Part shown: piece after piece, positions 9,253 through 52,731 of the stretch
How positions within the stretch are numbered: the first letter of the stretch is position 1
How the letters are laid out: each line of letters starts with the position of its first letter
Made by a program: the position numbers and the translations under genes
Assembly: GCA_023667245.1 (NCBI GenBank)
Contig: JAMPAL010000002.1
Span: 20,732-84,731 of the forward strand
DNA length: 64,000 nt
Direction: 5' to 3'
Source of the DNA: Anaeroplasma bactoclasticum
Lineage (GTDB): Bacteria; Bacillota_I; Bacilli_A; ML615J-28; CAG-313
The notes under the pieces: model-generated
Databases searched by the model: none
The model's input: the letters and a program-made list of their open reading frames with translations, nothing else
Told to the model about the DNA's origin: nothing

Positions 9253-10034
9253 ATATCACTATTTTTTGAAGTATGACTTACTCTTTTGGCAATTTCTAAG
9301 GCAATAAAGAAGTGTTTTAATCTTTCATCAATTGAAATTAATGATAAGATTCCTCTATCCCAGTTCTCACTATCTAAGTTATCTGCTCGGTATAAAAAAT
9401 TATATAATTCATACCCCCTAAAATTAGCAACTGCCTGGCAAGCACTCACTTCCATCTCTACTGCGATACATCCCTCACTTCTTCTTTTTTCAAAATGATG
9501 AAGGGTTTCGCGATAAAAAGCATCCGTAGTCCAAGTTTTTCCTGTTACATAGGCAATATTTAAATCACAAAGTATTTGAGCTACAACTGGATAATTTGAA
9601 ATCTTTATATAATCACTAGCTTCCATATAATGATAACTCATTCCTTCATCACGATAGGCATCTGTTGGTACAATCAAGTGATTAGAAGGAATAGTTTTAT
9701 CCAATCCTCCACAACTACCAAAAAGAACAAATTGCTTGCAAGAAAAAACATATCCAATCTCTTCAATTAAAGCGGCTGTTATGGGTGCACCCACTGTTGT
9801 TTTTACAACACCAATGTGCGTATTTTTATACACATATATAGGATATTTACAAGAAACACTTTTGATTGTCGTATCATCTATCAATTCGAGTAATCCATCC
9901 TCTATTAGCGCATCCATAATCTTATACGAGAAATTGATAATACAAACATCTAATATTTGATTACTTTTATCATACACGTCTTCTAAATTGATAATGGCTC
10001 TTCTTTCTTGGTCAAATGCATCTATTATACTCAT
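9249..10034 (-). CDS. Nucleoside phosphorylase (PNP/UDP family 1)-like protein
   Basis: 261 aa. Segments GVVKTTVGAPITAA, FGSCGG and VEMEVSA follow the arrangement of uridine/purine nucleoside phosphorylase family-1 enzymes. Confidence 0.7.
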   Translation of the reverse strand: MSIIDAFDQERRAIINLEDVYDKSNQILDVCIINFSYKIMDALIEDGLLELIDDTTIKSVSCKYPIYVYKNTHIGVVKTTVGAPITAALIEEIGYVFSCKQFVLFGSCGGLDKTIPSNHLIVPTDAYRDEGMSYHYMEASDYIKISNYPVVAQILCDLNIAYVTGKTWTTDAFYRETLHHFEKRRSEGCIAVEMEVSACQAVANFRGYELYNFLYRADNLDSENWDRGILSLISIDERLKHFFIALEIAKRVSHTSKNSDI

Positions 10035-34300: not shown

Positions 34301-37300
34301 GCTTGCAAATACCTTTGAACCAAGCATTAACTCTTGCACCGCTGCTCCTTCTTCTGGATTTAAGAATGTAACAGTTGTTAATTTTGAACAAGATTGGAAT
34401 GCATTTTCATCAATTTTTGTAACGGTTGCTGGAATAATAATTTCTGTAATTTTAGAACAGCTCTTGAATGCATTAATCGGAATGGTTGTTACAATACTAG
34501 GAATAGTATAAGTACCACCTTTTGTGTTATATGGGAAATATTTAATTTCGTAGCCATTATATTCGTTTCGATAAATTAACACGCCATCAACTGAAAAATA
34601 ACGGATATCTTCTTCAAGCAGTCCCTCAACTGGATATACATTTACTGCTTGTAAATTTGTACAAGATTGGAAACATGAACCAGTACCATTAGGACCTTGA
34701 GATCCAACTTCTACATTTAGAATTGAGGCTGGAATATTCACAGTAATTAAGTTAGAACAAGATTGGAATGCACTTGCTTCAACAGTTGTTACTGGTAGAC
34801 CTAAGTATGTTGTAGGGATAGTTATCGTTGATACATAGCCAATACCAGGACCTTTAGAAACAGAATACGCTTTGCCATCATTAATCAAATCAAATGTAAA
34901 CACATCTACCCAACCAGCATATAATGTAACTTCTCCATAATCTCTCCAATTTTTAAGAGATTTACCTTGTTCATTTGTATATCTTTCACCTTGAGCATTC
35001 AACTCTGAATACCAACCAATAAATGCTTTTAAATTACTTTCAGTTTTAGGAATTGGTAAAGTAAATGGTGAGCCAAATTGTGTAGTTACTTGATCAATTT
35101 CACCACTACCATAAGTAGCATAATCTAATTTTGCAACATATTCTTTTCCGTTCCAAGAAGCAAAAATTTCAATATCTGTATCCGCTTCAAACGTTTCTGC
35201 GGTAAATAAATTACCAGAATTTACAGCACCATTTTCAATATCATACCAACCTATGAAGTTATATCCTTCAAATGTTGGAATAGGTAATGATGGAATTTTG
35301 TCTCCTTTAACAAAATATAAATTTTCAAGTGTTTCACCACCGCTTGTATTAAGAATTAGTGCATATACTTCAACAGCATATGGAAAAAATTCTCCATAAT
35401 TTCCCTCGTTATCAACAGCGGTGACATAAATGGTATGTTTACCTGATGTTATTTTATAATCTACTTGAGTATCATTTTCAACAAAAATAATTTCGCTATC
35501 ATCCACTTTAACAGCATATTTTCCAACAAATGGAACCGAGTTCCAGCTGATTACACCATTTTTATATTCAATGGTGTTGACTCCATCCTTACTAATAAAT
35601 ACATCAGGACTATACAATGAATTATTTTTTTCTTCCGTCGCAACAGCTTGAACACTAATTACAAATTCATCAAGTGTTTCAATTTCTTCAAGTGTTAATG
35701 TATAAGCATTTGTTGAAGATGTAAATAACTTATCTCCAATTTTAATATTATATCCAATAGCCCCTTCAACTGCATCCCATAATACTTCACAACCTATTAC
35801 TTTAATATTTGTTGGTGTGAATAATGCTGTTTTATTGTAATCGTATTTTGTTGTTTTCGCATAACATCCTTGAGCAACTGGAGTAATAGTAAAACTCAAA
35901 TTACCATAGAAACTATCAATTGCAAGCATATTGTTGGTCGTTGTATAAGTATATGTTTGACCATTTGGAGTAAGGATAGTTACTTTATAACTAGTTGCAT
36001 TTTCAACTACATCCCACATTAATGTTTGAGTCGCTGCATCAACTGTAACATTAGTTACTTCACTTAATTCTCTATACAACATTACTTCTTTAGAAGTAGA
36101 TGACATATATCCATTTGCTTTTGCAGTAACGATAAATTTAATACCTTTATCTGGCATCAAACATTCGCTAAAGTCATATTCATTTACATCGCCTAAATCA
36201 AGCATTTTATGCTGATGGCCACTTAAACCACACTCAACCGTTATTAAATAATTGGTTGCATTTTCCACTTTATTCCAAGTTAATTTAAATCCATCAATTT
36301 CAAATTTACAAACTTGCGTTAATTTTTTATTGCAATAGTATGCTTTTCCTGTATAATCGCCTGTAGTTACTTCTACTACATAATTTCCAGCACTTAATGT
36401 ATTAAAATCAAATTCAACATAATTGGCATTGACCCTCTTTGTAAATACAGGTTCTTCAGCAAGATCATCTGCATATCGTATATTTACTGCATATTGCTTA
36501 TTTACACCTTTATTATCCCAAGCAATTTGTCTTTCATTGACAGATACTAGCGGTGCAGAATTGGCATAGACTGCATAAAGAACTATGTCTTGTTTGATTT
36601 CCATCATTGGTAAGAATTCATATGTAAGCTTAGAGCCATCTTCATAATCACTTATCCACCAACCAATAAATGTTTTCCCCTCTACATCAACTGTTGGAAG
36701 TGTATATAATGTGTTATTGAATGTTTCAACACTTTCAATATTTACCCCCTCTATACCAGTATCAAAACTTACTGTATATTCATAATCATATTTTTCTTTC
36801 GCAACAAATCTTGCATAGATTGTTGTATCACTTGTAATGACTTCCTTTTCGAAATCAAATACAGTCAAATATGAACTATCTTTATACCAATTTACAAATA
36901 AATGATTTTCTTTTTCAGGATCTTGAGGTTTTTCACATTTTTGACCATTTTTTATCGTAAGCGTACGATTAGAACCTGCACTAAAAGTCACAGTATAATT
37001 GACATCACGATAAAAGGTATATGAATATCCTTTATAAGAAAAGCTCATTATGTTTTCTTTATAATCTACATTTACACTTTTTTTATCATTTTCAAATGTA
37101 AAATCAAGTGTAGAACCATCAAATGTATAAGAACCATTTAAAGTTTCAACGAGATTATTCAGAGTGAACTTTCCTTCATCAAGTTCCAATGAATAAGTTT
37201 CTTCATCTAGATAACTATAATACTTGCCAACTTCGCCTTGATCAACGAATTTTTTCTTTTTACAATTACACCCTGCAAAAAGGGTTGTAAAGATAAGAAA

Positions 37301-37345
37301 GGCAACTAACATAAAAATAATTTTAGCCCTAAATTTCGCCTTCAT
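28397..37345 (-). CDS. Giant surface lipoprotein (2982 aa): Flg_new repeats, five Fn3-like modules, then about 2100 aa of BspA-type leucine-rich repeats
   Basis: Lipobox FAGC. Flg_new signatures are HLFVNWY, KTFIGWW, YNFIGWY and KAFIGWY. Fn3-like modules carry the x-W-D/N-x-V-x-x-A-x-x-Y motif (LTWNKVENATNYLITV, LMWDVVENATSYKVTI, VLWDAVEGAIGYNIKI ...). Dozens of YAF(Q/K/A)(N/G)C(T/S)xL LRR units follow. There is no LPXTG motif. Confidence 0.9.
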   Translation of the reverse strand: MKAKFRAKIIFMLVAFLIFTTLFAGCNCKKKKFVDQGEVGKYYSYLDEETYSLELDEGKFTLNNLVETLNGSYTFDGSTLDFTFENDKKSVNVDYKENIMSFSYKGYSYTFYRDVNYTVTFSAGSNRTLTIKNGQKCEKPQDPEKENHLFVNWYKDSSYLTVFDFEKEVITSDTTIYARFVAKEKYDYEYTVSFDTGIEGVNIESVETFNNTLYTLPTVDVEGKTFIGWWISDYEDGSKLTYEFLPMMEIKQDIVLYAVYANSAPLVSVNERQIAWDNKGVNKQYAVNIRYADDLAEEPVFTKRVNANYVEFDFNTLSAGNYVVEVTTGDYTGKAYYCNKKLTQVCKFEIDGFKLTWNKVENATNYLITVECGLSGHQHKMLDLGDVNEYDFSECLMPDKGIKFIVTAKANGYMSSTSKEVMLYRELSEVTNVTVDAATQTLMWDVVENATSYKVTILTPNGQTYTYTTTNNMLAIDSFYGNLSFTITPVAQGCYAKTTKYDYNKTALFTPTNIKVIGCEVLWDAVEGAIGYNIKIGDKLFTSSTNAYTLTLEEIETLDEFVISVQAVATEEKNNSLYSPDVFISKDGVNTIEYKNGVISWNSVPFVGKYAVKVDDSEIIFVENDTQVDYKITSGKHTIYVTAVDNEGNYGEFFPYAVEVYALILNTSGGETLENLYFVKGDKIPSLPIPTFEGYNFIGWYDIENGAVNSGNLFTAETFEADTDIEIFASWNGKEYVAKLDYATYGSGEIDQVTTQFGSPFTLPIPKTESNLKAFIGWYSELNAQGERYTNEQGKSLKNWRDYGEVTLYAGWVDVFTFDLINDGKAYSVSKGPGIGYVSTITIPTTYLGLPVTTVEASAFQSCSNLITVNIPASILNVEVGSQGPNGTGSCFQSCTNLQAVNVYPVEGLLEEDIRYFSVDGVLIYRNEYNGYEIKYFPYNTKGGTYTIPSIVTTIPINAFKSCSKITEIIIPATVTKIDENAFQSCSKLTTVTFLNPEEGAAVQELMLGSKVFASNTSLEVINLPARLTSFNADIFNSCSKLVAVNITGTYENAVYSSMDGVLMDVDKTEIIFFPRAKGPTYTTPVGIQTIRESAFDSCKGLIEINISGQVTLIEKNAFKSCTALEKINFLGGAEDSALTIKNSAFYGCNNASLTEVTLPANLTVMEKNAFGGTSKLTKVNVYAVSPNINFEYAAFGTTTTSVSISPTYYVKELFIAKEVAAFDITGVFGSKVLAKVVVEEGNTNYASIDGVLFDKDVTKIVYYPTEREGNYVVPETVVEIGAKVFENKTGITSITISKNVKLIGTSAFANCTNLKEVIFEEGGTEELVIGSMAFYSCRALVNLQLPERLTQILDAAFKACEAIPEIVIPSNVKSIGAEAFQSCSSAVRITLPTSLEVIVESGSTLTDDKEDRIRSFDFCKSLTEFVLVGENENYKVIDGILYRVVKNKEGEILGYELLVCPQNKGGKIDLPSNVIALANRSFYQNKSIEELTFSNGIDTELSIGSFAFYECTNLSQLELPNGLKNIGTQAFYRCDLLREVVIPNTVEFLPTKTFYYCSSLNKITFEEGGTVPLELGDGTVSSGDEYTYYYGTFAMCDNLETIILPERLTTIGKYAFAGMSKIKTVYIPSTTKKIGDNAFYQCSGLTDLTFAETAPDLVLGKYAFAYSGITSLNLPEGLQTISDNAFYGCKFIQSVVIPASVTSIGTWAFYNDILLASVTFAEGSQLETIGANAFCYTPITSISFPQSIKKIDNYAFQNCKSLVTVTFEGTDTEEGSSLQMIGQRAFGNCSSLTSFAFPYCGVDEAGVYNKITLGSGTMVHLFEGDSNLTHVYLSEAVTSISNLFVKCSGIQTIVVAEHSENFRVSETQPIILNVDGTAIQFLFGRMDGVFAIPEGVTTIGTYAFAGQTNITKVIVPKTMKTIGDYAFNNCYNLVEIEFANGCVLDTLGKNVFNACKSLKNIVLPNGIQTIPEYAFAACESLESITLPNNLQSIDQYAFVFTSSLKSITFPNSLKKIMNYAFRSSGLETVTIPEGVTQFGTYVFTECYSLTEATLPTTIKTFANQLFTNCTALTTVNLPEGLTILGGYAFKGCTSLKTVKLPSTLTTFGNYTFQGCTSLESIEIPEGITYIGASKSATASSYAFDGCTALESVTFLGDKVEIIGQYAFRGCTSLRSLTFPTALTTIAAYAFQNSGLEKVVVPSTVTTLGNYAFADCQSLVSANIEGTLKSFGTYMFKGCSNLTDVIIADDNTTIGNYAFQNCENLTNVTLPAKLTTLGTYAFQNCTGLEKITLPASLVKIGGTTYSASAYTFDGCTSLAEVEILGKATYIGAYVFKNCTSLKSITLPSTCTSIGSYAFQNSGLESIDLSKVTTMGTAALKDCANLATAVLPNIAILPNYTFQNCVSLKTVEIPNKTTKIGSSTTAGYVFDGCTALENVKFLGAITHIYGYAFRNCTALKSITIPETVTELGDYAFFGSGIENINVPSKVAKLGKAVFNACPNLATLSIDGANTTYMVYDNKAIVEIATTTVVSVFNLSGDYILPEGVNIASYALNGVTLGTLTLPDTLTTLPNYALYGLAATKVVLGSGLSTLPTSLFANTNIDTVVLGAEEVAVGSNAFENSTVQTIENSENIVSIASNAFKNCKNLSTIALSDKLLKIESNAFTLSGLTSIVIPGSVECLGTYSSTSTSSGSVFKDCENLTSVILNEGLETICDSAFVGTAITSITIPSTVTRVGLNICKDVTTLKNATILCNVLNNNMFNGCTALESVQMSQHITKIPNYAFANCTSLSTIDLPNGITEIGTYAFQNCTSLTQIKLPDELVTIQTAAFANTGLTSVQIPSKVKNIFGSAFLDCANLVSVVLNEGLETLGTISTGGNPTGNVFKNCVNLETITLPQSLQSIGSGTFQNCNKIKSIVIYENCITVGDSAFAGWTSDQKVCVVASLYDITGYWYEIVSSSTFKGYWTGTDAEFVFEYNESSK

Positions 37346-40396: not shown

Positions 40397-40945
40397 ATGA
40401 ACAAAACAGATATGTATTACATCAATAAATACGATTCACCTATTGGTGGCATCACACTTGCGAGTAATGGGAAAGAACTCACTGGGCTTTGGTTTGATGG
40501 GCAAAAATATTTTGCCAACAATTTACCAGAGCACCCTATGGAAATGGATTTACCGCTATTTAAGCAAACTAAAAAATGGTTAGACATTTACTTTTCAGGT
40601 AAAACGCCTGATTTTACTCCACCTATTTCTATGGAGAATATTTCACCATTTCGCAAAAGGGTTTGGGAAATTATGCTAGCCATTCCCTTTGGAAAAACTT
40701 CTACATATGAAAAAATTGCAAAGCAAATTGAAAAAGAAAGTGGCAAAAAAGCTTCTGCGCAAGCAGTTGGTGGAGCTGTTGGACACAACTCCATTTCACT
40801 TATTATCCCTTGTCACAGGGTTGTTGGTACAAATGGAAATATTACAGGCTATGCTGGTGGTATAGATAAAAAACTTTTTCTTTTACAAATGGAAAGCATA
40901 GACATATCAAAACTATTTATTCCAAAAAACAAAACAACAGTTTAA
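40397..40945 (+). CDS. ogt: Methylated-DNA--protein-cysteine methyltransferase
   Basis: Active-site motif IPCHRVVG, the upstream helix-turn-helix segment (STYEKIAKQI), and RBS AAGGAGA 7 nt before the ATG. Confidence 0.9.
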   Translation: MNKTDMYYINKYDSPIGGITLASNGKELTGLWFDGQKYFANNLPEHPMEMDLPLFKQTKKWLDIYFSGKTPDFTPPISMENISPFRKRVWEIMLAIPFGKTSTYEKIAKQIEKESGKKASAQAVGGAVGHNSISLIIPCHRVVGTNGNITGYAGGIDKKLFLLQMESIDISKLFIPKNKTTV

Positions 40946-41251
40946 ACCAATTCAAACTTTTTTATACTATCAATGATAACCCTCAAATTAAGGAAAAAGA
41001 CAACTAATAAATTTTCAGTTGTGACTTGACCTCTTTATTTATTAATAGTATTATAATCCGTTTTTCCTTCTTCTTCCATTTGAAGTTTTTTCTTAATTAT
41101 ACTTTATACAAAAGGGATTATCGAAAATAGAATTATAACTTGGAAAGTTATTTATTAATATGTTATCTTGTTAGACTTTATTTATTCAATTTGTTTTATC
41201 CAATTTTGCAAGATGGCAGGATATTTTATTTATTTTTGTTACTTAATAGGG

Positions 41252-41297
41252 AAGAAAAAGACATAGAAATTCTTATTGAATTTCTATGTCTTTTATT
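41252..41297. terminator. 15-bp stem hairpin at the distal edge of the accessory island
   Basis: aaagacatagaaatt (41257-41271) pairs with aatttctatgtcttt (41279-41293). The minus strand continues TTTTTCTTCCC. Confidence 0.55.
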
Positions 41298-41303
41298 TTA
41301 TTT

Positions 41304-42994
41304 CTATTCAGTTAATAACCGATTATCTTTTTTATGAAATTCTAAATTGCCAAGTCGATAAGTTTCAATATCTTCATCGACTAATACAATTACTCCATTT
41401 GGCAATATATAACTTCCATTTCTATTACATATTCCACTTCTGTTGATAAAGCATTGAGTTGTACAAATCCTCTTTCTGCTACTCCACCACAGAACAAACA
41501 CATAGCATATCTTTTTCCTCCAGAAAAGGCATTACTTGATACAGCATGTCCTTATTGAGTCATTGCTCCACATCCACAAGTTGCTCTATGTTGATTATAA
41601 TCTACCCAAACATATGGTTCATGATGGTCATGAGCAGTTGTATAATTATTACAATGAATACAATAATGGTCATGATATACATGCAATAATGTCGTTGTAT
41701 ATCCACAATAACAAGTTGCTAAGTGTCCATAGTTCGCTTGTTCATATGTAGTATACGTATGAGAGTGTACCAAAATATTAATATTTATATTACCTGAAGA
41801 GGTTGTGTTTACATAATTTAACTTTAAATAATATGTTTCTTTCAAAAGTGGTTTATAAAATACAACATTTGATTCTGTATATGATTCTATTAATTCCATT
41901 TCATTATCATAAAGTTCTATTTTAATTGCACTTGTTGCATTCATATTAAACCCATAATATTTGTTATAGAGTGAATTATTAATTTCTAAAATAGAATCTT
42001 TACCCGATTGCACACCTGAATTAGAGGAAAAATTTGATGCACTTGATGAAATATCAACTTTATTTTTATCGTATTTGATAAAATAAATATTACTATCATC
42101 ATATAATTGAGCAAATATATTTATTTTACTTTTTCCTTCTTTACCATTCACGCTATATTCACCATACCATTTTTCAGAATTATTTGGTGTAGAATTATAC
42201 TTAAGTACAGCAGTACTTCCTGGTTTATGATACCAAGAATTAGTTGACAAATCGTATTTCATAAAATGATAATCATATCTAGACATTCTTATACATATTA
42301 GTTCTTGATTGTTAGTAATAGTGGGTATAGTTGTTGATAATGAAATATTAGTATAACCCATTTTTATTCAGTCATCCTTAACAACATTTGCTAATTGTGA
42401 TATCGAGTTTGCAGTGCCAAAACTACCACTTCCTGACATATCGCCTATTTGATATTGGATATAATTCCCTGAAGGGTAAAATTGATGTTGCCCTATTCTA
42501 TTCATAACATATGCATAACAATTATAATTTTTCCATTTATTATACTAGGAACCGCCTTGTTTCACCCAGTTACCATTTGAGTCTTTAACAATATTGTACT
42601 GTAATGAGTAAGAAGAATAAACAGACAATGGTGTATTTTGATTATCTAAGTAATAAATAACATTATCTTTTATTTCATTCGCAAAATTTTGCAGTTCATC
42701 ATAGTTAAAAACAAAGTCACAGAATTGGTTATTATAAACTAATTGTATTAGTCCTTTTACAAAGTTTCCAATATCTGAATAATCCCGAAATTTATTTGGT
42801 ATATCTATGTTATAATCTTCTAAAAATTACAAACTTTCTTCTTCTGTGATATTAATAAAATCATATTCAGTACTTGCACAAACACTTAACGTTGTTCTAT
42901 TTACAAATGAGCAGAAACCGAATGAAACTAACAAAACAAAACATAGAAATTTTTTAATTAAATTTTTTATATTTCTATATCTTCTATGCCTCAT
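41304..42994 (-). pseudogene. Secreted papain-like (Cys-His) hydrolase with a His/Cys-rich C-terminal repeat region, disrupted by four in-frame stops and one terminal frame change
   Basis: My translation from ATG 42994..42992 gives a signal peptide (MRHRRYRNIKNLIKKFLCFVLLVSFGFCSF). The same frame is then interrupted by TAA (42829..42827), TAG (42547..42545), TGA (42370..42368) and TAA (41554..41552). Conserved-looking motifs are NCYAYVMN, YDYHFMKY and WYHKPG, followed by HxH...CxCG repeats. The last about 65 aa (41304..41501) lie in a different frame. Confidence 0.7.
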
Positions 42995-43196
42995 TTAACA
43001 AATAAACCTTAAATATCCCTACATAACCTTCACTTTTTGATGCAAATAAAAGGTATTGGTTATTTACATTTTCAATTAAATAAAAGCTATCCGCCTCATT
43101 GATGTCCGTTGTGCTCTTTATTACAAAACACTTTTCGATATTCATTAGATCAACAAGTTCCACATTATAAAAAAATTCATAATCACTTGAATTCAT
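42984..43196 (-). CDS. Small hypothetical protein, probably the remnant of a longer degraded gene
   Basis: 70-aa ORF whose stop overlaps the downstream start. The same frame stays open upstream of its Met (…CITNFKVEIKNNKLNIDNEEVGTLSNGKISQDNW) until an in-frame TGA at about 43326. A lipoprotein-like start (TTG..SFLTCSC) sits in another frame at about 43385. Confidence 0.35.
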   Translation of the reverse strand: MNSSDYEFFYNVELVDLMNIEKCFVIKSTTDINEADSFYLIENVNNQYLLFASKSEGYVGIFKVYLLNEA

Positions 43197-43476
43197 CCAA
43201 TTATCTTGACTTATTTTTCCATTAGATAGAGTGCCTACTTCCTCATTATCTATATTTAATTTATTATTTTTGATTTCTACTTTAAAATTTGTTATGCACC
43301 TTGAAAAGCATATTGGCTGAGCAACTCATACGGCATTATATTTACCATTTTTTATATGAATTATAATTCGTGCAACTACAAGTTAAAAAACTCAAAAGAA
43401 TCCCCCCCTAACACAAGAAATAATCTTGTGTATTTACTATGATTTCCACCTTATTTCATGCTATGCTTTTATAAGC

Positions 43477-43507
43477 AAAAAACTCTCTTTTTTACCTAAA
43501 GAGAGTT
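43477..43507 (-). terminator. Hairpin terminator downstream of the 43654..43989 fragment
   Basis: aactctcttt (43481-43490) pairs with aaagagagtt (43498-43507). The minus strand continues with a T-run and then GCTTAT. Confidence 0.45.
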
Positions 43508-43653
43508 TTCTATCCTTATTTTGTTGCCTTAGGCATTGATACAACCATCTAAGTGTGCTTTTGCTTATAATTTCATTTTATCATAAAATATTTTCTTACA
43601 CAATCAATATCATAATTTTTATTGATGCTCATTTTCTGAATATGTATGTTCTT

Positions 43654-43989
43654 TTAAAACCATATCTCCACATAGCAACTAGCGTAATGTTCGTGTTCAT
43701 TATAATACTCATAATAATTATTATAGACGTGATATATAAAGATATCTGAATTGCAATATGCTTTATGTGAAAGTTCATCTATATATTCGTAGCTTTCACC
43801 ATAACGATAATGATGTGGTTTGGAAATAACTTGATTTTTTGTATCAACACATACATCTATATAATCAATTATAATTCTTCCTTTATTTTCTACTATTATT
43901 CTTATTTTTAACACCTTTAGGTATGATTGTAAAATTTGCTTTTGATGGTAATAAAAGTACATTCGCCTCTTTTTATATTCTCCATTCAT
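43654..43989 (-). pseudogene. Fragment paralogous to the His/Cys-rich C-terminal region of the 41304..42994 gene
   Basis: ...HHYRYGESYEYIDELSHKAYCNSD...YNEHEHYASC resembles ...YNQHRATCGCG of the neighbouring gene. The expected CxCG continues only after a 1-nt shift (CGDMVLKEHTYSENEHQ). No catalytic N-terminal domain is present. Confidence 0.4.
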
Positions 43990-44287
43990 TTGCTACTTCA
44001 TTAAAATATTGTCCTTAATTACTTTCGTTTTTAAAAGTCATAAATAACATATTTGGTAAGCACTGCTATTTGTATATAATATTATAATAAATTACTCCAG
44101 TCATAAAGCTATTTAATATATCAGAATACATATATGTAGGTAGATAGGTTCATTCCTCCAATTTGAACGCATTTCTAGCATTGTATGTATAATGCTTTAC
44201 TTGGTTAAAGTCATTTGTACAATTTCATGGAAGAGCAAGAGTTTTTTCCATTTCCCTGTGGATTATTACTTGTAACTCTAGTATAGT

Positions 44288-44900
44288 TAATTTTCGTTAT
44301 AAACTTGTGCTACTGTTTCAGCAAAAATAGATCTTGATTTTTTGTTTTCATCAGGATTATTTTCTTTATTTCTTAAGCATTTGTTTCGCACCTCTTGCCA
44401 TATAAAGCCTATTATTCTTTTTTCATCCAACATATAGAAAGAGTCAGGTTGATATTCCCATTTATATGTATTTTGTTTCTTGTTATAATGTATATATTGT
44501 TGCCTTCCATCATTACAAGCATATACAACTGCAAAATCACAACTGTGAAGAATTCTTGAATTTTTCTTGTCTTTAACTTTTATAGTAATTACTCTGCTAC
44601 TATCCTCAGCATAATCATATAAGAATATTTATCAAATGCTTGTTTTAGAATATTTCGTATTTCTTTTGCACTATAATCTTCGTCATCATCATTGACCCCA
44701 ATGTTTACATCAAAATCATATCCTTTATTACCATTTACCTCTCTTGTAATCATATTTCGACTTGCACTCCCAATAAAATCAAATCTAAATGTAAAAAAAT
44801 CTCGAACCTCATCTTGAACCATATTAATCAGTTCTATAAGTTCTTTCTTTACTGACATATATTCTTTTTTTGATACATATTCGTACTGTTTCATAAACAA
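44288..44900 (-). pseudogene. Minimal Pol-beta-superfamily nucleotidyltransferase (about 200 aa) split by a single frameshift near 44615-44630
   Basis: The track ORF 44589..44900 carries the NTase motif FIGSASRNMITREVNGNKGYDFDVNIG (GS ... DxD). The C-terminal half reads on in another frame to TAA at 44290..44288 (YDYAEDSSRVITIKVKDKKNSRILHSCDFAVVYA...QVYNEN). Confidence 0.65.
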
Positions 44901-45083: not shown

Positions 45084-48000
45084 TTATAAAAGAATTGCTT
45101 CCATTCTATCATCATCTGCATTTTCTTTATAGGAGGTTGCTATTTGAGTTAAAACATAATTCGTTGATGATTTTAATTTATAATGTTCTGCATATGAAAA
45201 ATATTGATTCATTATATTATATTCCATAGTGCCATCTTCTATAGTGCGAGCCCCTCGAGAATTTATTTTTGAAATAATAAATTGCGATAATATTTCTCTG
45301 TTAGAAATCAATTCTAAAATATCTGAAACATTGTTGGAAGGCCAAACTTCTCCATCTTTTTCTTTCTCAAATGATATAGTATGCATAATAGTACGTTGAA
45401 CTAAATCTTTTTCTTTATCATCTAAAGTTTGGGATGCATCTAATAATATTTTTACCCATTTTTTCAATTTATCAGGATATAATGAAATGTATTCTTCAGG
45501 AATTAAACATCTATTAAGTGGATAAAGCAAAAGATTTTTCAATTCTTCATCTTTAAAATCATTACTATATACTTTACTTAAAAGTTCCACTAATACACTT
45601 GGGTTATTCCAAAAATATTTTTTAATTCCTAGTGACAACGCTTCACTCTTCAAAATTGGCAATAGTTTAAATTCACAAAAGACAATTTCTTCATCATATA
45701 CCATATTGTCAAGTTTATTTATAAAATCACAAATTAAAGAAATATAATTATTCTCAAAATCCAATCCAATAGGATTTTTTATAAACGATAATAATGCTTG
45801 TTTCATTTTTTCTACATTAAAACGATAATCAGGATTAGCAAGATAGTCAATTACTTTAATAGGAAAAAAGTGGAGTAATCTATCATATGCTTTTTTAAAT
45901 ACATCTTCGTTTTCTATTCCATATAAAGTTTGATTTTTCCAAAATAAATCCTCATTTTTCTTCCTTTTCACAAAATTAATGGTATTCTCATTAAGAGGTA
46001 ACAAAGGAATAATGTTAAATTGTATTTCTTCATCATAACTTTCTATAATTTTCATTAATTTAAAAGGTTCAATATTTATAAAACAATTAAACAATAAATT
46101 ATACTTTCCTAATTTAAATAAACTTAAAATAAGTTTACTATGGTTATGTTCATACTGTAATAACAGTTTTCCTATTTGACTCTCATTTGAAACCGTTTCT
46201 ACAATTTTATCAGTAGCATCATTTCTATAATAGCTATATAAAACTTGAAATGTTTCATTAAGTTCTTCCTCCCTTTTAAGATCATTTATTCTTGTATAGT
46301 TTTTATAATTGTTTTGATTATATGGTTCAGGATTCTTTAAAGGAAAGTAATATGGCTTTGCTTCAAGTCTGTATTTATATTTTAAAAACACGTCAGTAGG
46401 TTCAGAAATTTCTAATAATTGCTCAAAACAATCTAAAAACTTTATTTTATATTTTCGACTTTCAATATACATTTTCATATCATAAATTTCATAAAGAATT
46501 ATTTTATAAATTTTATATTTATAATTATCATCAAAAGTTGCTATTTTCTCTTTTAATTTTTCAAAAAAGTGATAAATATTTTTTGAAGGAACGTAATTTA
46601 TAAAATCAAATGCATTTTTCAACCACACAGAATAATCTTTTGTATTATCAATTAGCCAATAAATTGCAAATTGATAATAAAAATCAATATCACTATCACT
46701 TAATTTAATTACATTATTATTTCTTTTCCACTTAGGACTAATAGAAATGCCTCTTGATAAATTTCTTCTTGATATAAATAATTCAAGTATTTTTTCTGAT
46801 TTACTATTGTCATATCTTGAAAGTTTATCTTTTAATAATTGAATTTTATCTTGTATTTTTAAAGGTATAATGTTAGTTGATACTAAACTAAAATATGATG
46901 CAATTTTTTCTGCAAAATGAAAATGTTCAAGTATTGTATAATCACTGAAATAAATTTTTAAATATATATTCAAAGCTCGTATGCATATATTATCCATCTG
47001 ACAACAAATATCAAGAGCCCAACATATGTATTTAAAATGAGATTCATCACACTCAGGTAAAAAACCATTATATCTCTTTTCTATCAAATTGCTTACAGCT
47101 AAGTTCTTAAAATATAAATTAGTTTCTAAAAAATCCAGGAAAATATTTGGAGATAATTCTGCTATTTTTGGAAAATACGGGGCTATGTTAAAAACTAGAT
47201 TTTCATTATTCATTATGTTATTTAAAATTTCTTCGATATGTTTATCACAACATTCTTGGTTTTTATCTGAAATATTACTATATAAAATTAAACTATCAAG
47301 AATTCCTTCAACTAAATATGTCTTATATTTTTCTTTTATACCATAAACACTTGAATAGTGCCATTGTTCTGGTGCTAAATTATATTTCTCATTTTCGCAA
47401 TTAAATATTTTTTTTAATGAACTTACTAAACGAGTAATATAAACACTTGAAATATCAATTATTTTAAAGCACTCTTCTTTTGAATTAATTTTATAAATAA
47501 AATTATATCTAAATACTGGACTATCGTCTTTACCTACCCATTTATCTAATGATAATAAATATTCATCAAATTTTATACCAGAAATTATTTTTAATACTTC
47601 TCGATCATATTTATCGTTTTTATTAAACTCAGTTACAAGCAATAATGGAATTATACTATCTCTATTTGAATCCTTTGTCCATTTAGGTTGTTTAACACAT
47701 GGTTCAATTGCTAGTTGCCTTTTTAATATAGATAAGTTTTTATTTACCTTTGCTGATAATTCACTAGCATCTATATTTTGTAGTCCCATACTTTCAAGAG
47801 CTTTTGTAAAATTAACATGTGTACAATAATTTAAATTTAAAATAGTTTCAATTCCTCTTTCAGTTTCTGAAATCATAATAATATATAGATTATCATCACC
47901 CAATATTATATCTTGATAAAATTTAGTTATAACTATTTTATCTTTACAATTTTTCTTAATATAATTCAATGAATCAACATTATTTGCAAAAATAATTTTT

Positions 48001-48734
48001 TCTTTAATTTCTTTTTTACCCAATTCAAATAAACTTCCTAATAAAAAATATAATACATGTTCTGTTCCTTGATAAGATTTGATTGTTAAAAATTTATGTT
48101 GTGCAGATTCAAAATAAGTGTATAACTCTTCCATTTTATCTCTATTACTATTTATCATTATTTTGCTATTAAATTGAGGACTCGTTATGTTTACAACTTT
48201 ATTCCATTTACTCTGAAAGGTATCAACATCTATATTTTTTCCTTCACTAAATTGTTCAAGTAGCCATACACCCACTTCAATATTTTCTTCTATCCAATCA
48301 GATATTTTCTCTGCATCAATTAGGATAACTTGTTTCCATATTTTTTCTTGGTTTTTAGAATATTCCCAATCTAGAATATTTATTCCAAATATATTGGAAG
48401 ACACAAGTAAAAAAGTATACTCTCTTTTATCATAATCAGTAAGTTCTTTACTTCTCTTATCATAATCAGCATTAATTTTTTTTAAAGAATTCTCATTTGT
48501 TCCTACTTCCCAAATAGAGTTTCCTATTGGAACATAATTTGTATCAACAGTAACGTTTTCTATTACACCATCAAATCCATATGCCCAAATTGCATCACCT
48601 GATGGAAATCTAATATTGCCTCTTCTATTACAAGAAGCAATAATTAATCTTTTTATTAGTTCAGGAAATATTCCTTGTCCTTTTCTGCTACCAGAAAATA
48701 ATTGCGCTATTTTTGTGCTTGTAATAAAATTCAT
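45084..48734 (-). CDS. Orphan large protein (1216 aa): N-terminal about 160-aa globular domain with a possible D...E-x-G-T...K nuclease-like signature, the rest predicted helical-repeat-like
   Basis: This is an uninterrupted 3.65-kb ORF in the most AT-rich DNA of the window, where random stops are frequent, and that argues for selection. RBS AAGGAGAA precedes the ATG. The N terminus reads FPELIKRLIIAS...IRFPSGDAIWAYGFDGV...IGNSIWEVGTNENSLKKINADYDKR. I saw no P-loop and no TM helix. Confidence 0.85.
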   Translation of the reverse strand: MNFITSTKIAQLFSGSRKGQGIFPELIKRLIIASCNRRGNIRFPSGDAIWAYGFDGVIENVTVDTNYVPIGNSIWEVGTNENSLKKINADYDKRSKELTDYDKREYTFLLVSSNIFGINILDWEYSKNQEKIWKQVILIDAEKISDWIEENIEVGVWLLEQFSEGKNIDVDTFQSKWNKVVNITSPQFNSKIMINSNRDKMEELYTYFESAQHKFLTIKSYQGTEHVLYFLLGSLFELGKKEIKEKIIFANNVDSLNYIKKNCKDKIVITKFYQDIILGDDNLYIIMISETERGIETILNLNYCTHVNFTKALESMGLQNIDASELSAKVNKNLSILKRQLAIEPCVKQPKWTKDSNRDSIIPLLLVTEFNKNDKYDREVLKIISGIKFDEYLLSLDKWVGKDDSPVFRYNFIYKINSKEECFKIIDISSVYITRLVSSLKKIFNCENEKYNLAPEQWHYSSVYGIKEKYKTYLVEGILDSLILYSNISDKNQECCDKHIEEILNNIMNNENLVFNIAPYFPKIAELSPNIFLDFLETNLYFKNLAVSNLIEKRYNGFLPECDESHFKYICWALDICCQMDNICIRALNIYLKIYFSDYTILEHFHFAEKIASYFSLVSTNIIPLKIQDKIQLLKDKLSRYDNSKSEKILELFISRRNLSRGISISPKWKRNNNVIKLSDSDIDFYYQFAIYWLIDNTKDYSVWLKNAFDFINYVPSKNIYHFFEKLKEKIATFDDNYKYKIYKIILYEIYDMKMYIESRKYKIKFLDCFEQLLEISEPTDVFLKYKYRLEAKPYYFPLKNPEPYNQNNYKNYTRINDLKREEELNETFQVLYSYYRNDATDKIVETVSNESQIGKLLLQYEHNHSKLILSLFKLGKYNLLFNCFINIEPFKLMKIIESYDEEIQFNIIPLLPLNENTINFVKRKKNEDLFWKNQTLYGIENEDVFKKAYDRLLHFFPIKVIDYLANPDYRFNVEKMKQALLSFIKNPIGLDFENNYISLICDFINKLDNMVYDEEIVFCEFKLLPILKSEALSLGIKKYFWNNPSVLVELLSKVYSNDFKDEELKNLLLYPLNRCLIPEEYISLYPDKLKKWVKILLDASQTLDDKEKDLVQRTIMHTISFEKEKDGEVWPSNNVSDILELISNREILSQFIISKINSRGARTIEDGTMEYNIMNQYFSYAEHYKLKSSTNYVLTQIATSYKENADDDRMEAILL

Positions 48735-48922
48735 AGTTTTCTCCTTAATTATTATCGTAACTCTTACAATTTACAATTATTATATCATAACCAATATATT
48801 TTTAGCAAAAATTTATTTTAAATATCAATTTATTTTTTTTCATGAGTTTGAGTTCCATTTTTTATTTTTTTATAAAAAATAGCCATAAAATTTAATCCAA
48901 TTTTTTGATAAATTTTAAAGTA

Positions 48923-48992: not shown

Positions 48993-49077
48993 TGGTGCAA
49001 CTGATGAGATTCGAACTCACACGTCTTTCGACACTACAGCCTGAATGTAGCGCGTCTGCCAATTCCGCCACAATTGC
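48993..49077 (-). tRNA. tRNA-Leu (anticodon CAG), type II with a long variable arm, CCA encoded
   Basis: Folded by hand. The acceptor is GCAATTG/CAGTTGC. The anticodon stem is CTACA/TGTAG with loop TTCAGGC. The T-loop is GTTCGAATC, and the 3' end is CCA. Length 85 nt. Confidence 0.9.
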
Positions 49078-49193: not shown

Positions 49194-50990
49194 TTATGCA
49201 ATGGGTTCAAATTGAGAATTATATAACTCCGCATAAAAACCGCCTTGTTGCAGTAAGCTTTGATGTGTACCTTGTTCAATAATATCTCCATTTTTCATTA
49301 CCAAAATGACATCGGCATTTTTAATGGTAGAAAGACGATGAGCAATAACAAACGAAGTTCGTCCTTTTGTTAGGTTATCCATTGCATTTTGAATCACTTG
49401 TTCTGTTCTAGTATCTACACTAGATGTAGCCTCATCCAAAATCAATAATGGTGCATCCTTAATCATAGCTCTAGCAATCGTCAATTGTTGTTTCTGACCT
49501 TCTGATAAACTAATTGTATCATCAATCATTGTATCATAACCTTGCGCAAGTGTGTGGATAAAGTGTTTTAAACCAACAGCCTCACAGACTTCGTCTAATC
49601 TTTCATCACTCACTTGTTCTTTATTGTAAACTAAATTTTCTCTAATAGTTCCCTTAAATAGCCACGTATCTTGTAAAATCATATCAAATAAATCATGAAC
49701 AGTTTCTCTTTTCATATCAGTAATAGATATACCATCTATTTCTATAGATCCCGAATTCAGCTCATAAAAGCGCATGAGTAAATTAACGATGGTCGTTTTA
49801 CCAGCTCCTGTTGGTCCAACAATAGCTACTTTTTGTCCCTTTTTTAAATGGGCAGAAAAATCATGAATAATTGTATGCTCTTTTGAATATCCAAATTGAA
49901 CATGATCGAATGTCACATTGCCCTCTACTTGGTCTAAAACGATCTTTTTATGATTTTCATTTTCCAATTCCTCTGATTCTAGCATTTCAAATACGCGCTT
50001 AGATGCAGCTGATGCTTGTTGAATAGATGTCATTGACTGAGCAAAAGTGGTGAGTGGATTTGAAAACAATCTAGCATAAATTGTAAATGACATAATTGTA
50101 CCAAATGTAACCGTATGGCTTCCCCCTAATATCAGTGCTACTCCTACAATAAAAATCAATGCATAAGATAAATTGCCTATAAATCCCATAATAGGTTGCA
50201 TAAATCCTGATAAAAATTGTGATTTCCAATTATTCTGATATAACTGTTGATTAATAGATTGAAACTTCTGTTTGGCGTCTTCTTCTGCATTATAGGATTT
50301 CATTACATGATGATTGGTATACATTTCTTCAATATGTCCATTCATATCACCTAGATTTTTTTGCCTTCTATTAAAGAATTTTTGCGATTTTCCTAAAATA
50401 ATAAACATAACTAGAAATCCTAAAAGCGATGATATTGTTGTTACAACTGCTAAAATCGGATTAGTTACAAACATTTTATAGATTACACCAACAAATAAAA
50501 CGACTGCACTTACTAAATTCGCAATAGATGAACCAAGCGTTTGCGAAATTGTATCAACATCATTGGTTACTCTACTCAAAATATCTCCTCTTGTAGTCGT
50601 GTCAAAAAATTTTAGTGGCAAGTGATTGATTTTTTGATTGATATCTGTTCTTAAACTTTTAGATATTTTTTGCGTAATCGTTGCCATGATAAATTGTTGC
50701 GTATAATTCGCAATAGCACCTATCAAATATAGGGTGAGTAGCCATATACAAATGCGTACAAATACACTCATATCTATTCCTGTAGGAGATTTTAATCCAT
50801 TTAAAATGGTATCTGTCAATTCTTGAATTCTTTCTGGCCCAACAATTGTAGTTATTGCTCCCACTACAGCAAAAAACAAAGCAATTAAAATAGCAGGTAA
50901 ATACATCTTACAATAGACCAATATTTTTTTCAATGATTTCAAATCTGTTTTTTCTTTTGACTGACTCATCGGTCTCATATGTGGTGGCAT
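49194..50990 (-). CDS. ABC exporter half-transporter (TMD-NBD), canonical ATPase site
   Basis: Six TM helices, Walker A GPTGAGKTT, signature LSEGQKQ, and Walker B LLILDEATSSVD. Confidence 0.9.
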   Translation of the reverse strand: MPPHMRPMSQSKEKTDLKSLKKILVYCKMYLPAILIALFFAVVGAITTIVGPERIQELTDTILNGLKSPTGIDMSVFVRICIWLLTLYLIGAIANYTQQFIMATITQKISKSLRTDINQKINHLPLKFFDTTTRGDILSRVTNDVDTISQTLGSSIANLVSAVVLFVGVIYKMFVTNPILAVVTTISSLLGFLVMFIILGKSQKFFNRRQKNLGDMNGHIEEMYTNHHVMKSYNAEEDAKQKFQSINQQLYQNNWKSQFLSGFMQPIMGFIGNLSYALIFIVGVALILGGSHTVTFGTIMSFTIYARLFSNPLTTFAQSMTSIQQASAASKRVFEMLESEELENENHKKIVLDQVEGNVTFDHVQFGYSKEHTIIHDFSAHLKKGQKVAIVGPTGAGKTTIVNLLMRFYELNSGSIEIDGISITDMKRETVHDLFDMILQDTWLFKGTIRENLVYNKEQVSDERLDEVCEAVGLKHFIHTLAQGYDTMIDDTISLSEGQKQQLTIARAMIKDAPLLILDEATSSVDTRTEQVIQNAMDNLTKGRTSFVIAHRLSTIKNADVILVMKNGDIIEQGTHQSLLQQGGFYAELYNSQFEPIA

Positions 50991-50991
50991 A

Positions 50992-52731
50992 TTATAACTC
51001 CTCCTTTGTTAATTGTGATAAAGCGATTTCTTGATAAACACTACAACTATCTAGTAATGATTCGTGCTTTCCTATTCCTACGATTTTTCCTTCGTCTAAA
51101 ACAATAATTTGATCGGCATTTTTGATTGTACCAATACGTTGTGCAACGATAATTACTGTTTTGTCTTTTAACTTTTCTTTGATTTTTTTACGAATGAGCA
51201 TATCGGTCTTATAATCTAAGGCCGAAAATGTATCATCAAAAATCATGATTTCAGCATCTTTATAAATTGCCCTTGCAATAGATATTCTTTGTTTTTGTCC
51301 ACCTGAAAAATTTGTTCCACCTTGGGCCACTTCACTATCTATGCCTCGTTCTAATTCCTTTACAAAATGCGATTGTGAGATATCTAATGCCATAACTATT
51401 TGATCTTCATCTATTTTATTTGTACCATATGTAATATTCTCTTTGATTGTTCCTTTAAATAGTACCGCTTTTTGTGATGCAAGTGCAATCTTATCACGAA
51501 GATCATGTTCTTTATACACCTTAACATTCACACCATCTACTAAAATCGCTCCTGAACCAACATCATAGAATCTAGATATTAAATTGACAAGGGTAGTTTT
51601 ACCAGAACCTGTTGCACCAACAATAGCGAGCGTTTCTCCCTTCTTTACTTTAAAAGATATATGTTGTATTGCTGGGGCTGCATCCTTTGTATAGCTAAAA
51701 GATACATCTTGAAACTCAATAGTTCCCGTTTCAAAAGATGTTGTTCCTTCTCCATCTTTTATATTCAATGGAGTATGGAGCACATCATATATACGTCCAC
51801 CAGAAACAATAGTTCGCGGTAAAATAATGAAAATCATAATAAGCATCATAAAAGCCATAATCACTTGCATTGCATACTGTGTGAAAGCTGTCATATTCCC
51901 TAATAAAATTTGTTTTTCCATCATACCTTCTGTTTGATTAATTAGAATGGCTCCTATAAAATAGATGGCAAGAGTTAAAGCATTCATACAAATTGTCATA
52001 ACAGGATTCATCAATCCCATTGTTCTACTTGTAAACAAATTATTTTTTGTAATTTCCTTATTGGTTTGTTCAAATTTTTCTTCTTGATATTTTTCCGCAT
52101 TAAAAGCTCGAACGACTCTTACACCACTTACGTTTTCCCTTGTAATATCGTTTAAGTCATCCGTTAATTTTTGAATTTTCTTGAATCTATTATAACAAAT
52201 AGCAACCAATATACCCACAACAATCACGATAACTGCTACTGTAAGAATCGTTGCTAGTGTCCAAGCGATATGTGTTTCAGAAATTTTGCAAATTGCCCAT
52301 ATGGCCATAATGGGTGCTTTAAATAATAACTGTACACCCATGGCTACAAACATCTGCATTTGAACGACATCCGTCGTTGTTCTTGTAATTAAGCTAGGAG
52401 TTGAAAATTGGTTGATTTCTTGATTTGAAAAACCAACTACTTTTTCAAATAATTTTTCCCGTAATCTCATTGAAAATGAACTTGCTACTTTCGAAATAAA
52501 ATAACCACATGCTATGGCAGCTATTAAACTACCCATTGCACAAAGTAACATCCTTCCGCCATTATACCATACATCAGCCATTGTGATTTGTTCAGATGAT
52601 ACAAGGGTGGTCAAAGCCTTTGTATAGTCTGGCATTTTTAATTCTAAACCCACCTGGAGTATAATTAGCCCGATACAAATTATAATATATACCCAGTCCT
52701 TCTTTTTTAAATATCGAAATAGTTTTATCAT
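50992..52731 (-). CDS. ABC exporter half-transporter (TMD-NBD), degenerate catalytic site
   Basis: Walker A GATGSGKTT and signature FSGGQKQ. Walker B is IMIFDDTFSALD, with Asp in place of the catalytic Glu, as in heterodimeric exporters of the LmrCD/BmrCD type. There is a 1-nt gap to the partner gene. Confidence 0.9.
   Translation of the reverse strand: MIKLFRYLKKKDWVYIIICIGLIILQVGLELKMPDYTKALTTLVSSEQITMADVWYNGGRMLLCAMGSLIAAIACGYFISKVASSFSMRLREKLFEKVVGFSNQEINQFSTPSLITRTTTDVVQMQMFVAMGVQLLFKAPIMAIWAICKISETHIAWTLATILTVAVIVIVVGILVAICYNRFKKIQKLTDDLNDITRENVSGVRVVRAFNAEKYQEEKFEQTNKEITKNNLFTSRTMGLMNPVMTICMNALTLAIYFIGAILINQTEGMMEKQILLGNMTAFTQYAMQVIMAFMMLIMIFIILPRTIVSGGRIYDVLHTPLNIKDGEGTTSFETGTIEFQDVSFSYTKDAAPAIQHISFKVKKGETLAIVGATGSGKTTLVNLISRFYDVGSGAILVDGVNVKVYKEHDLRDKIALASQKAVLFKGTIKENITYGTNKIDEDQIVMALDISQSHFVKELERGIDSEVAQGGTNFSGGQKQRISIARAIYKDAEIMIFDDTFSALDYKTDMLIRKKIKEKLKDKTVIIVAQRIGTIKNADQIIVLDEGKIVGIGKHESLLDSCSVYQEIALSQLTKEEL

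Follow-up and report, generated by a model that had tools for sequence, protein, structure and literature searches.

We analysed a stretch of 64,000 nucleotides from Anaeroplasma bactoclasticum (contig JAMPAL010000002.1, positions 20,732 to 84,731; hereafter the window), focusing on a gene for a protein of 1216 amino acids located at 45084-48734 on the minus strand. This gene is likely to encode a stand-alone, Avs-like intracellular pattern-recognition receptor, derived from the signal transduction ATPases with numerous domains (STAND) and belonging to the Avs8/PD-λ-4A lineage, which would carry a nuclease as its effector and act independently of nucleoside triphosphates (NTP). The evidence consists of the fold of the protein, its homology to Avs8A over the full length, the loss of canonical motifs, the invariant residues of the N-terminal domain and the defence-related and mobile context of its homologues. 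An earlier reading of the sequence (the original prediction) had proposed the product as a candidate defence or conflict protein; it is now a strong one.

The open reading frame (ORF) is complete from its ATG to a TAA and free of interruptions, and its product is identical to NC090_00855, a "hypothetical protein" of the NCBI metagenome-assembled genome (MAG) of A. bactoclasticum. The DNA consists of 41% A and 35% T (24% GC), a composition at which about 10% of random codons are stops; a run of 1216 codons without a stop has a probability of about 7e-57, and each of the remaining five frames across 45084-48734 contains 54-208 stops. The ORF is real, its length being far above chance, and selection on it is likely because a stop-free frame of 3.65 kb at 24% GC is otherwise very improbable. 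The claim of an uninterrupted frame in stop-prone DNA is thus borne out, as is the placement of the gene in the most AT-rich DNA of the window: its GC content is 21-25%, compared with 31-35% in the flanks, which makes these the lowest-GC kilobases of the window, and low GC extends across the entire stretch from 41 to 49 kb.

On the other hand, the protein is not the orphan that it was taken for. Phmmer, run exhaustively against 1.84 billion cluster representatives (clusters at 50% identity), returned 2,746 representatives at E≤1e-3, 513 of them at E≤1e-30; most of these relatives are 1,150-1,280 amino acids long and align end to end with the 1216-residue protein. A second search, seeded with a high-GC member, added 514 relatives from Chloroflexota, Actinomycetota, Cyanobacteria, Acidobacteriota and Armatimonadota. 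Using tblastn, the family was also found on 25 plasmids (of Rhizobium, Shewanella, Cupriavidus, Arthrobacter, Adhaeribacter and others), 12 of which are conjugative. A search of loci with the first alignment gave four loci from Clostridia MAGs only, and a word-indexed protein search yielded no more than 10 relatives, also when the query was a profile of 90 sequences. Word-indexed searching therefore under-reports the relatives of an AT-rich, low-complexity query (10 vs about 2,750), and "orphan" calls that come from such a search are unsafe.

The family members are all "hypothetical" or unnamed, and their core has no Pfam domain. Scans of the 1216-residue protein against Pfam, PADLOC and NCBIfam gave no matches, Pfam scans of 39 family members nothing consistent, and comparison of family profiles with the sequences of Protein Data Bank (PDB) chains only weak PUF-repeat noise. 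Across 90 diverse members, L30, G53, D55, E76, K86 and W147 are invariant; all of these residues lie in the N-terminal domain, and the window protein retains every family-invariant residue. Three members (P0199, P0245 and P0246) have an annotated N-terminal NB-ARC domain (1579 amino acids) or tyrosine integrase (1539 amino acids) ahead of the full core; these fusions could be real or could be gene-calling read-throughs.

The structure was modelled using AlphaFold2 with a 111-sequence alignment as input, both for residues 1-1200 (predicted local distance difference test, pLDDT, 88; predicted template modelling score, pTM, 0.74) and for residues 1-445 (pLDDT 93; pTM 0.88). The N-terminus forms a restriction-endonuclease-like alpha/beta domain (residues 1-165; 48240-48734, minus strand), which is supported by secondary structure, motifs, profile-profile alignment with hhalign and fold matches. 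It is followed by a Rossmann-like alpha/beta domain (residues 190-300; 47835-48167, minus strand), which we assign as a degenerate STAND nucleotide-binding domain (NBD) because of its fold and the collinear homology flanking it, and then by helical and winged-helix-like modules (residues 305-425; 47460-47822, minus strand). The latter correspond in the model to the helical domain (HD) and winged-helix domain (WHD) of a STAND module, and R339, P350, W352, D377 and P406 are near-invariant in them. The remainder is an all-alpha solenoid (residues 430-1216; 45087-47447, minus strand), which is homologous to the Avs8A sensor and collinear with it, and is presumed to be the ligand sensor. The original prediction had read everything beyond the N-terminal part as helical repeats; this holds for the C-terminal 790 residues or so, while residues 190-425 form the degenerate STAND module.

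The whole model was compared with the PDB using Foldseek, and the top match was Avs4 in its portal-bound structure (8dgf_B; E 7e-6, probability 1.0), aligned over the full length; the matches after Avs4 were generic HEAT/ARM solenoids, including importins, CAND1 and FANCI. With the model of residues 1-445, the top positions were taken by EfAvs5 (4e-6), Avs3 (1.5e-5) and Avs4 (2e-3), followed by SAMD9, Apaf-1, a wheat resistosome and AAA+ clamp-loader subunits, and by weaker matches to EcoT38I, MUS81-EME1 and Cap4. Among the viral structures of BFVD, the matches were phage restriction endonucleases (probability 0.99 and 0.97, the latter with a root-mean-square deviation of 4.9 Å over 154 columns), as well as a Mrr-like protein and AAA+ ATPases. 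Both the AlphaFold2 domains and the Foldseek results contain the tripartite order of an effector, a nucleotide-binding oligomerisation module (NOD, formed by NBD, HD and WHD) and a C-terminal repeat sensor. Because of this domain layout and these matches, the protein is modelled with the effector-NOD-sensor architecture of receptors of the Avs and nucleotide-binding leucine-rich-repeat (NLR) type, that is, as an Avs (STAND) receptor whose effector has a restriction-endonuclease fold.

The relation to Avs8A emerges from the comparison of profiles. We aligned the family profile to one made from six Avs8A-type proteins, namely the Avs8A homologue of a Rhizobium plasmid and five other plasmid-borne Avs8-type proteins. 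With hhalign this alignment reached 99.5% probability (E 1.8e-22) over 1,025 columns and spanned positions 25-1219 vs 37-1197, starting in the nuclease domain and ending with the sensor. The N-terminal domain alone aligned to the Mrr-type nuclease domain of Avs8A with 92% probability (E 6e-7). When a single Avs8A sequence was compared with the family profile, the NBD segment was not bridged; the six-sequence profile alone did so. The PADLOC model PD-Lambda-4_A gave no match to the window protein, and 9 of the 39 diverse members matched it partially and at collinear positions (best E 3e-8); the true Avs8A homologue of the Rhizobium plasmid matched it over its full length (8e-66). Judged from these alignments, the family is a remote, full-length homologue of Avs8A/PD-λ-4A at the superfamily level, and the earlier statement that the protein matches no system that can be named did not hold. 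Avs8A is a proven antiphage receptor composed of an Mrr nuclease, a STAND domain with a P-loop and a repeat sensor; it binds major capsid proteins of the HK97 fold and then degrades DNA in an ATP-dependent manner (PMC12236752, PMC13581612).

Compared with Avs8, the family has altered motifs in both its NBD and its nuclease-like domain. In the NBD, no Walker A sequence (GxxxxGK[ST]) was found in the window protein, as the original prediction had stated for the P-loop, nor in 126 full-length relatives. The connection between beta1 and alpha1 is only 2-4 residues long; after it, all 90 members have an acidic cap, [SA]-x-[ST]-x-[ED][ED]-A, and the Walker A of Avs8 aligns to a gap in the family profile. 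The position aligned to Walker B is Asp in 32, Asn in 31 and Ser in 16 of the 90 members, and Asn in the window protein. These alignments indicate that Walker A has been deleted throughout the family and that a conserved Walker B acid is missing. Because both are lost, activation would proceed without binding or hydrolysis of NTP, and the receptor is probably nucleotide-independent. For KpAvs8, degenerate Walker motifs "suggesting a lack of ATPase activity" have been described (PMC13581612, Nature 2026), and the Avs7 sensor also functions in the non-STAND protein Dsr1 (PMC13581612); both precedents make nucleotide-independent relatives plausible.

The N-terminal domain has the element order alpha-beta-beta-beta-alpha-beta (helix 17-34, strands 40-42, 56-61 and 71-78, helix 83-96, strand 106-112). 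Its motifs are G53-x-D55-G56, S73-x-W75-E76-x-G78 with a Thr after G78, and K86, D90, K93 and R94. The invariant K86 lies ten residues after E76, in the next helix together with D90, K93 and R94, and could complete a nuclease active site with D55 and E76. The nuclease core of the PD-(D/E)xK type that the original prediction had sensed in this region is supported as far as the fold and the invariant D55 and E76, the Asp and Glu that it had singled out, are concerned.

Ligand sensing, oligomerisation, nuclease activity and antiphage function are proposed by analogy with Avs8, Avs3 and Avs4. According to this model, the solenoid (residues 430-1216) would wrap around a conserved phage protein, as Avs8 does around the HK97-fold major capsid protein. 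Binding of the ligand would release an autoinhibition set by the NBD-HD-WHD module (residues 190-425), acting as a pseudo-NOD, and the protein would then oligomerise. The N-terminal nuclease-like domains (residues 1-165, with D55, E76 and K86), once juxtaposed, would cut DNA, and the infection would abort. All these steps would take place without NTP.

The genomic context was surveyed at 17 distinct homologue loci. A conserved partner gene is not present among them; the family genes stand alone and their neighbours vary. Gabija (GajA/GajB) adjoins the family gene P0003 (locus L002, also L003 and L004). A DUF3800 protein matching the PADLOC candidate PDC-M04A (E 4.6e-14) lies downstream of the closest homologue, P0002 (L001:5114-5908), and a Mrr_cat gene is found near one homologue. 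An RT-SLATT pair and Shedu occur near one homologue, a type I restriction-modification system near another, and a PDDEXK nuclease with ImmA/IrrE near one. Abi, SIR2, two RES-Xre pairs and AbiEii surround one homologue; Abi and SieB are found near one, and AbiEi/Eii, Avs8A and restriction enzymes near another. Large serine recombinases are located 17 bp upstream of homologues, at the edge of elements with a relaxase and TnpV, and one homologue lies next to a prophage. As for the defence islands that the original prediction had asked about, Gabija, Shedu, restriction-modification, Abi and RES-Xre are found among the neighbours of homologues, together with serine recombinases and prophages. Finally, the N-terminal part appears to be exchangeable: a Shewanella copy combines a homologous body (hhalign E 2e-111) with an N-terminus of the canonical D..QxK type, and on a Buttiauxella plasmid (L022:3576-6670) a 106-residue HetE-N ORF (Pfam E 1.5e-40) lies 5 bp before a 922-residue protein whose match to the family starts at about residue 359. 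The Buttiauxella pair represents an effector-swapped variant, a split variant or a frameshifted fusion. Overall, the pattern of genes that stand alone, are mobile and patchy in distribution, have defence-island neighbours and modular effectors is that of Avs genes. At L002 (also L003 and L004) we also noted, at 9350-9997, a gene for a 215-residue Toprim-like protein (VEGxxD ... DND) with weak matches to OLD-like_TOPRIM and to the PADLOC ATPase-Toprim model; it ends 4 bp before P0003 and could be a lineage-specific partner of this gene.

A role outside immunity, as a DNA-binding transcriptional regulator, a maintenance factor of mobile elements or a generic HEAT/ARM scaffold, is unlikely. Many members are named "helix-turn-helix transcriptional regulator" or "HigA antitoxin" in RefSeq, some copies lie beside ParA/ParB or right after serine recombinases, and the solenoid also resembles importins, CAND1 and FANCI. 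However, the RefSeq names arise because a subset of members has an extra N-terminal helix-turn-helix (HTH) domain, an optional add-on that the window protein and most members lack. The solenoid matches reflect generic repeat similarity, with E-values weaker than that of Avs4, whereas the core shows full-length homology to Avs8A, whose antiphage role is proven, and has a patchy, mobile distribution with defence neighbours.

Rather improbable, too, is that the P-loop-less protein serves as a sensor or decoy partner (or as an HTH regulator) and acts through a neighbouring, ATP-competent Avs8A "helper". This idea derives from Rhizobium plasmids, on which a canonical Avs8A comes after an HTH-fused family gene in the same orientation (L020:5647-15018; L032:1880-9840). 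On three such plasmids, a full-length Avs8A homologue (PADLOC E 8e-66) is the gene immediately downstream of the family member, and the Avs8A copies are only 54% identical between plasmids, so that the tandem is not one recent element; that Walker A and QxK are both altered in the family would also suit a sensor or decoy. However, the tandem accounts for just 2 of the 17 complete distinct loci (L020 and L032), with a further, truncated family copy on the R602sp plasmid. An Avs8A-type gene was not detectable in the 64-kb window or at the other loci, most copies stand alone, and the invariant D55, E76 and K86 argue for a retained activity. At L020, a gene for 415 amino acids follows Avs8A and is possibly an Avs8B analogue.

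The third alternative, considered quite improbable, is that the gene is a recently acquired, non-functional Avs8-like pseudo-receptor which is decaying and still intact by chance. Its island contains a frameshifted neighbour and short ORFs, and its canonical motifs look "broken" in comparison with Avs8. Yet the same "breaks" occur in all of the approximately 2,750 clusters across phyla, together with the newly invariant G78, K86, D90 and R94. Because they are common to all phyla along with these residues, the altered motifs are best explained as ancient, selected features and not as decay; moreover, the stop-free frame discussed above is very unlikely without selection.

The remaining alternative involves the small nucleotidyltransferase (NTase) gene next to the large ORF. 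This gene (44287-44900, minus strand) lies downstream of the ORF and encodes a minimal NTase of about 200 residues (GS...DxD...D) with one frameshift near 44610-44625; a promoter-like site of its own, TTGACA-17-TATTAT, was found by sequence scan at 44979-44951 (minus strand). The repaired NTase had no significant Pfam hit. A two-gene, CBASS-like system, in which the NTase makes a signal or modifies a target and the 1216-residue protein is the effector, is essentially excluded: both genes lie side by side on one strand, and the repaired NTase weakly matches PADLOC oligonucleotide cyclases (E 1.9e-5), but the NTase is frameshifted, has a promoter-like site and a 180-bp gap from the large ORF, lies adjacent at 0 of the 16 other homologue loci and has the size of a MNT antitoxin/toxin, not of a CD-NTase, while Pfam and PADLOC scans and Foldseek revealed no SAVED, CARF or other nucleotide-sensor domain in the large protein. 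The co-occurrence of the NTase with homologues that the original prediction had envisaged was not observed: in a tblastn search of all homologue loci, a relative of the repaired NTase was present at 1 of 17 (that of P0003, L002-L004; 32% identity, E 9e-16), 5.6 kb from P0003 and beyond the Gabija pair. Since this sole relative is non-adjacent and belongs to a cluster of its own, a partnership between the NTase and the large gene is rejected; the NTase is a decayed piece of a separate module of the HEPN/MNT type. The cluster in question (L002:18799-21058, also L003 and L004) directly follows the Gabija pair, is uncharacterised and comprises genes for a 222-residue HEPN-like protein (R-x4-H, "RNKVMHH"), a 204-residue MNT-like NTase and a 325-residue PD-ExK-like protein ("ILIECKDY"); it may itself be a defence or toxin-antitoxin module. 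Remnants of the HEPN-like and PD-ExK-like partners were sought in the window, and none was found.

Several points weigh against the interpretation of the gene as an NTP-independent Avs-like receptor. The family is known from sequence and predicted structure alone, and Foldseek gave low TM-scores (0.15-0.36), as flexible chains with several domains are expected to do. At the sequence level, neither Pfam (window protein and 39 members) nor hhalign against the single Avs8A sequence matched the NBD to STAND. In the N-terminal domain, the position that holds the lysine of a canonical (D/E/Q)xK motif, two residues after E76, is Gly in 81 and Ser in 9 of 90 members. Lysine-migrated variants of nuclease active sites are known and K86 could substitute likewise, or else the domain could be non-catalytic. 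Some copies have an ordinary chromosomal setting, such as the one that follows gyrA near oriC in Ca. Magnetomonas. Finally, the copy studied here is surrounded by genes that appear to be decayed; it might have arrived recently and escaped decay so far, rather than being kept by selection.

The island itself shows few further landmarks. A tRNA-Leu(CAG) gene (48993-49077, minus strand), followed by a hairpin, is located directly upstream of the ORF, in agreement with the original prediction that the ORF adjoins this tRNA and a small NTase. Between the tRNA gene and the ORF, within 48740-48808 (minus strand), are a strong Shine-Dalgarno sequence, AAGGAG, 7 nt before the ATG, and a promoter-like site, TTGCTA-18-TG-TATAAT, found by sequence scan. 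Promoter-like matches in this AT-rich DNA are not above chance (51 found vs 45.5 expected), and the promoter and terminator scans were uninformative. A direct repeat of the tRNA-Leu 3′ end, of the attachment-site type, was sought to delimit the island and was not found. The description of every other gene of the island as broken holds for the frameshifted NTase; the other ORFs of the 41-44 kb region (41000-44300) are short (up to 269 amino acids) and rich in Asn, Tyr and Ile, with neither Pfam hits nor relatives in the fetched homologue loci. Both flanks consist of ordinary genes: on one side a gene for an O6-methylguanine-DNA methyltransferase (40397-40945, plus strand; Pfam E 8e-30), on the other two ABC-transporter-like ORFs with clear Walker A motifs (49194-52731, minus strand). 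A giant ORF of 2,982 amino acids (28397-37345, minus strand) lies about 8 kb from the island.

If the gene is an Avs-like receptor as proposed, it might be one representative of a large, phylogenetically broad, uncatalogued NLR/Avs-type receptor class (about 2,700 clusters) with a pseudo-NTPase NOD, nucleotide-free activation and a nuclease site remodelled to D55/E76/K86, some members being paired with Avs8A in the manner of plant NLRs; we put this forward tentatively, as a possible though doubtful extension. Across all domains of life, nucleotide binding is regarded as the switch that controls the oligomerisation of STAND/NLR receptors, and a large natural family with the fold but without the P-loop would, if real, be a test case for ligand-only switching. 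The family would also mark a blind spot of defence annotation: Pfam, PADLOC and NCBIfam miss it, and STAND surveys seeded with the NTPase would miss it too. Because the databases do not recognise the family, thousands of genes with a likely immune function currently carry the label "hypothetical" or "HTH regulator". In A. bactoclasticum, the only intact gene in an AT-rich island beside a tRNA gene would be a probable antiphage receptor in a gut bacterium of the Mollicute lineage, whose immunity is little studied.

Among solved structures, the best matches of both the whole model and the N-terminal module are Avs3, Avs4 and Avs5 (PDB 8dgc, 8dgf and 9jap), which share the effector-NOD-sensor order and, in the case of Avs3 and Avs4, also have nucleases as effectors. 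In contrast to the family, they have functional P-loops and need ATP for the assembly of tetramers or filaments; their sensors and ligands differ, and sequence similarity is not detectable. The plant paired NLRs RRS1/RPS4 and RGA5/RGA4, in which the sensor member is P-loop-independent, likewise place a receptor with a degenerate or dispensable P-loop beside a canonical one, comparable to the Rhizobium tandem with Avs8A. However, this is an analogy without homology, and most family members have no canonical neighbour. Dsr1, like other non-STAND systems, is a precedent for an Avs-type sensor that works without a functional STAND NTPase (PMC13581612). It differs in having a SIR2 effector and no NOD at all, whereas the family keeps the NOD fold as a pseudo-NTPase.

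The closest known system is Avs8/PD-λ-4A (E. coli ECOR07, WP_000963924.1; Vassallo 2022; Nagy 2025, PMC12236752; Lee 2026, PMC13581612). Both groups of proteins are about 1,250 residues long and have the same order of Mrr-like nuclease, NOD and helical sensor. Their N-terminal domains have in common the motifs G-x-D-G and a terminal "YDA..(I/L)..W...P.V..WL"; an N-terminal HTH is optional in the family and present in one Avs8-type protein, and both occur on plasmids and in defence islands. On the other hand, identity is about 11%, and no Avs8B-like partner accompanies the family gene. The six Avs8-type proteins have the Walker A motif G-x-SG-x-GK[ST]R, which in the family is deleted and not merely mutated, and they have DGGxD...QxK (invariant D49, D53, Q76 and K78) where the family has E-x-G and the invariant K86. 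The Avs8A DNase requires ATP (PMC12236752), which the family, as judged from its sequences, cannot bind via a P-loop. The family would thus be a P-loop-less sister of Avs8, new unless KpAvs8 belongs to it.

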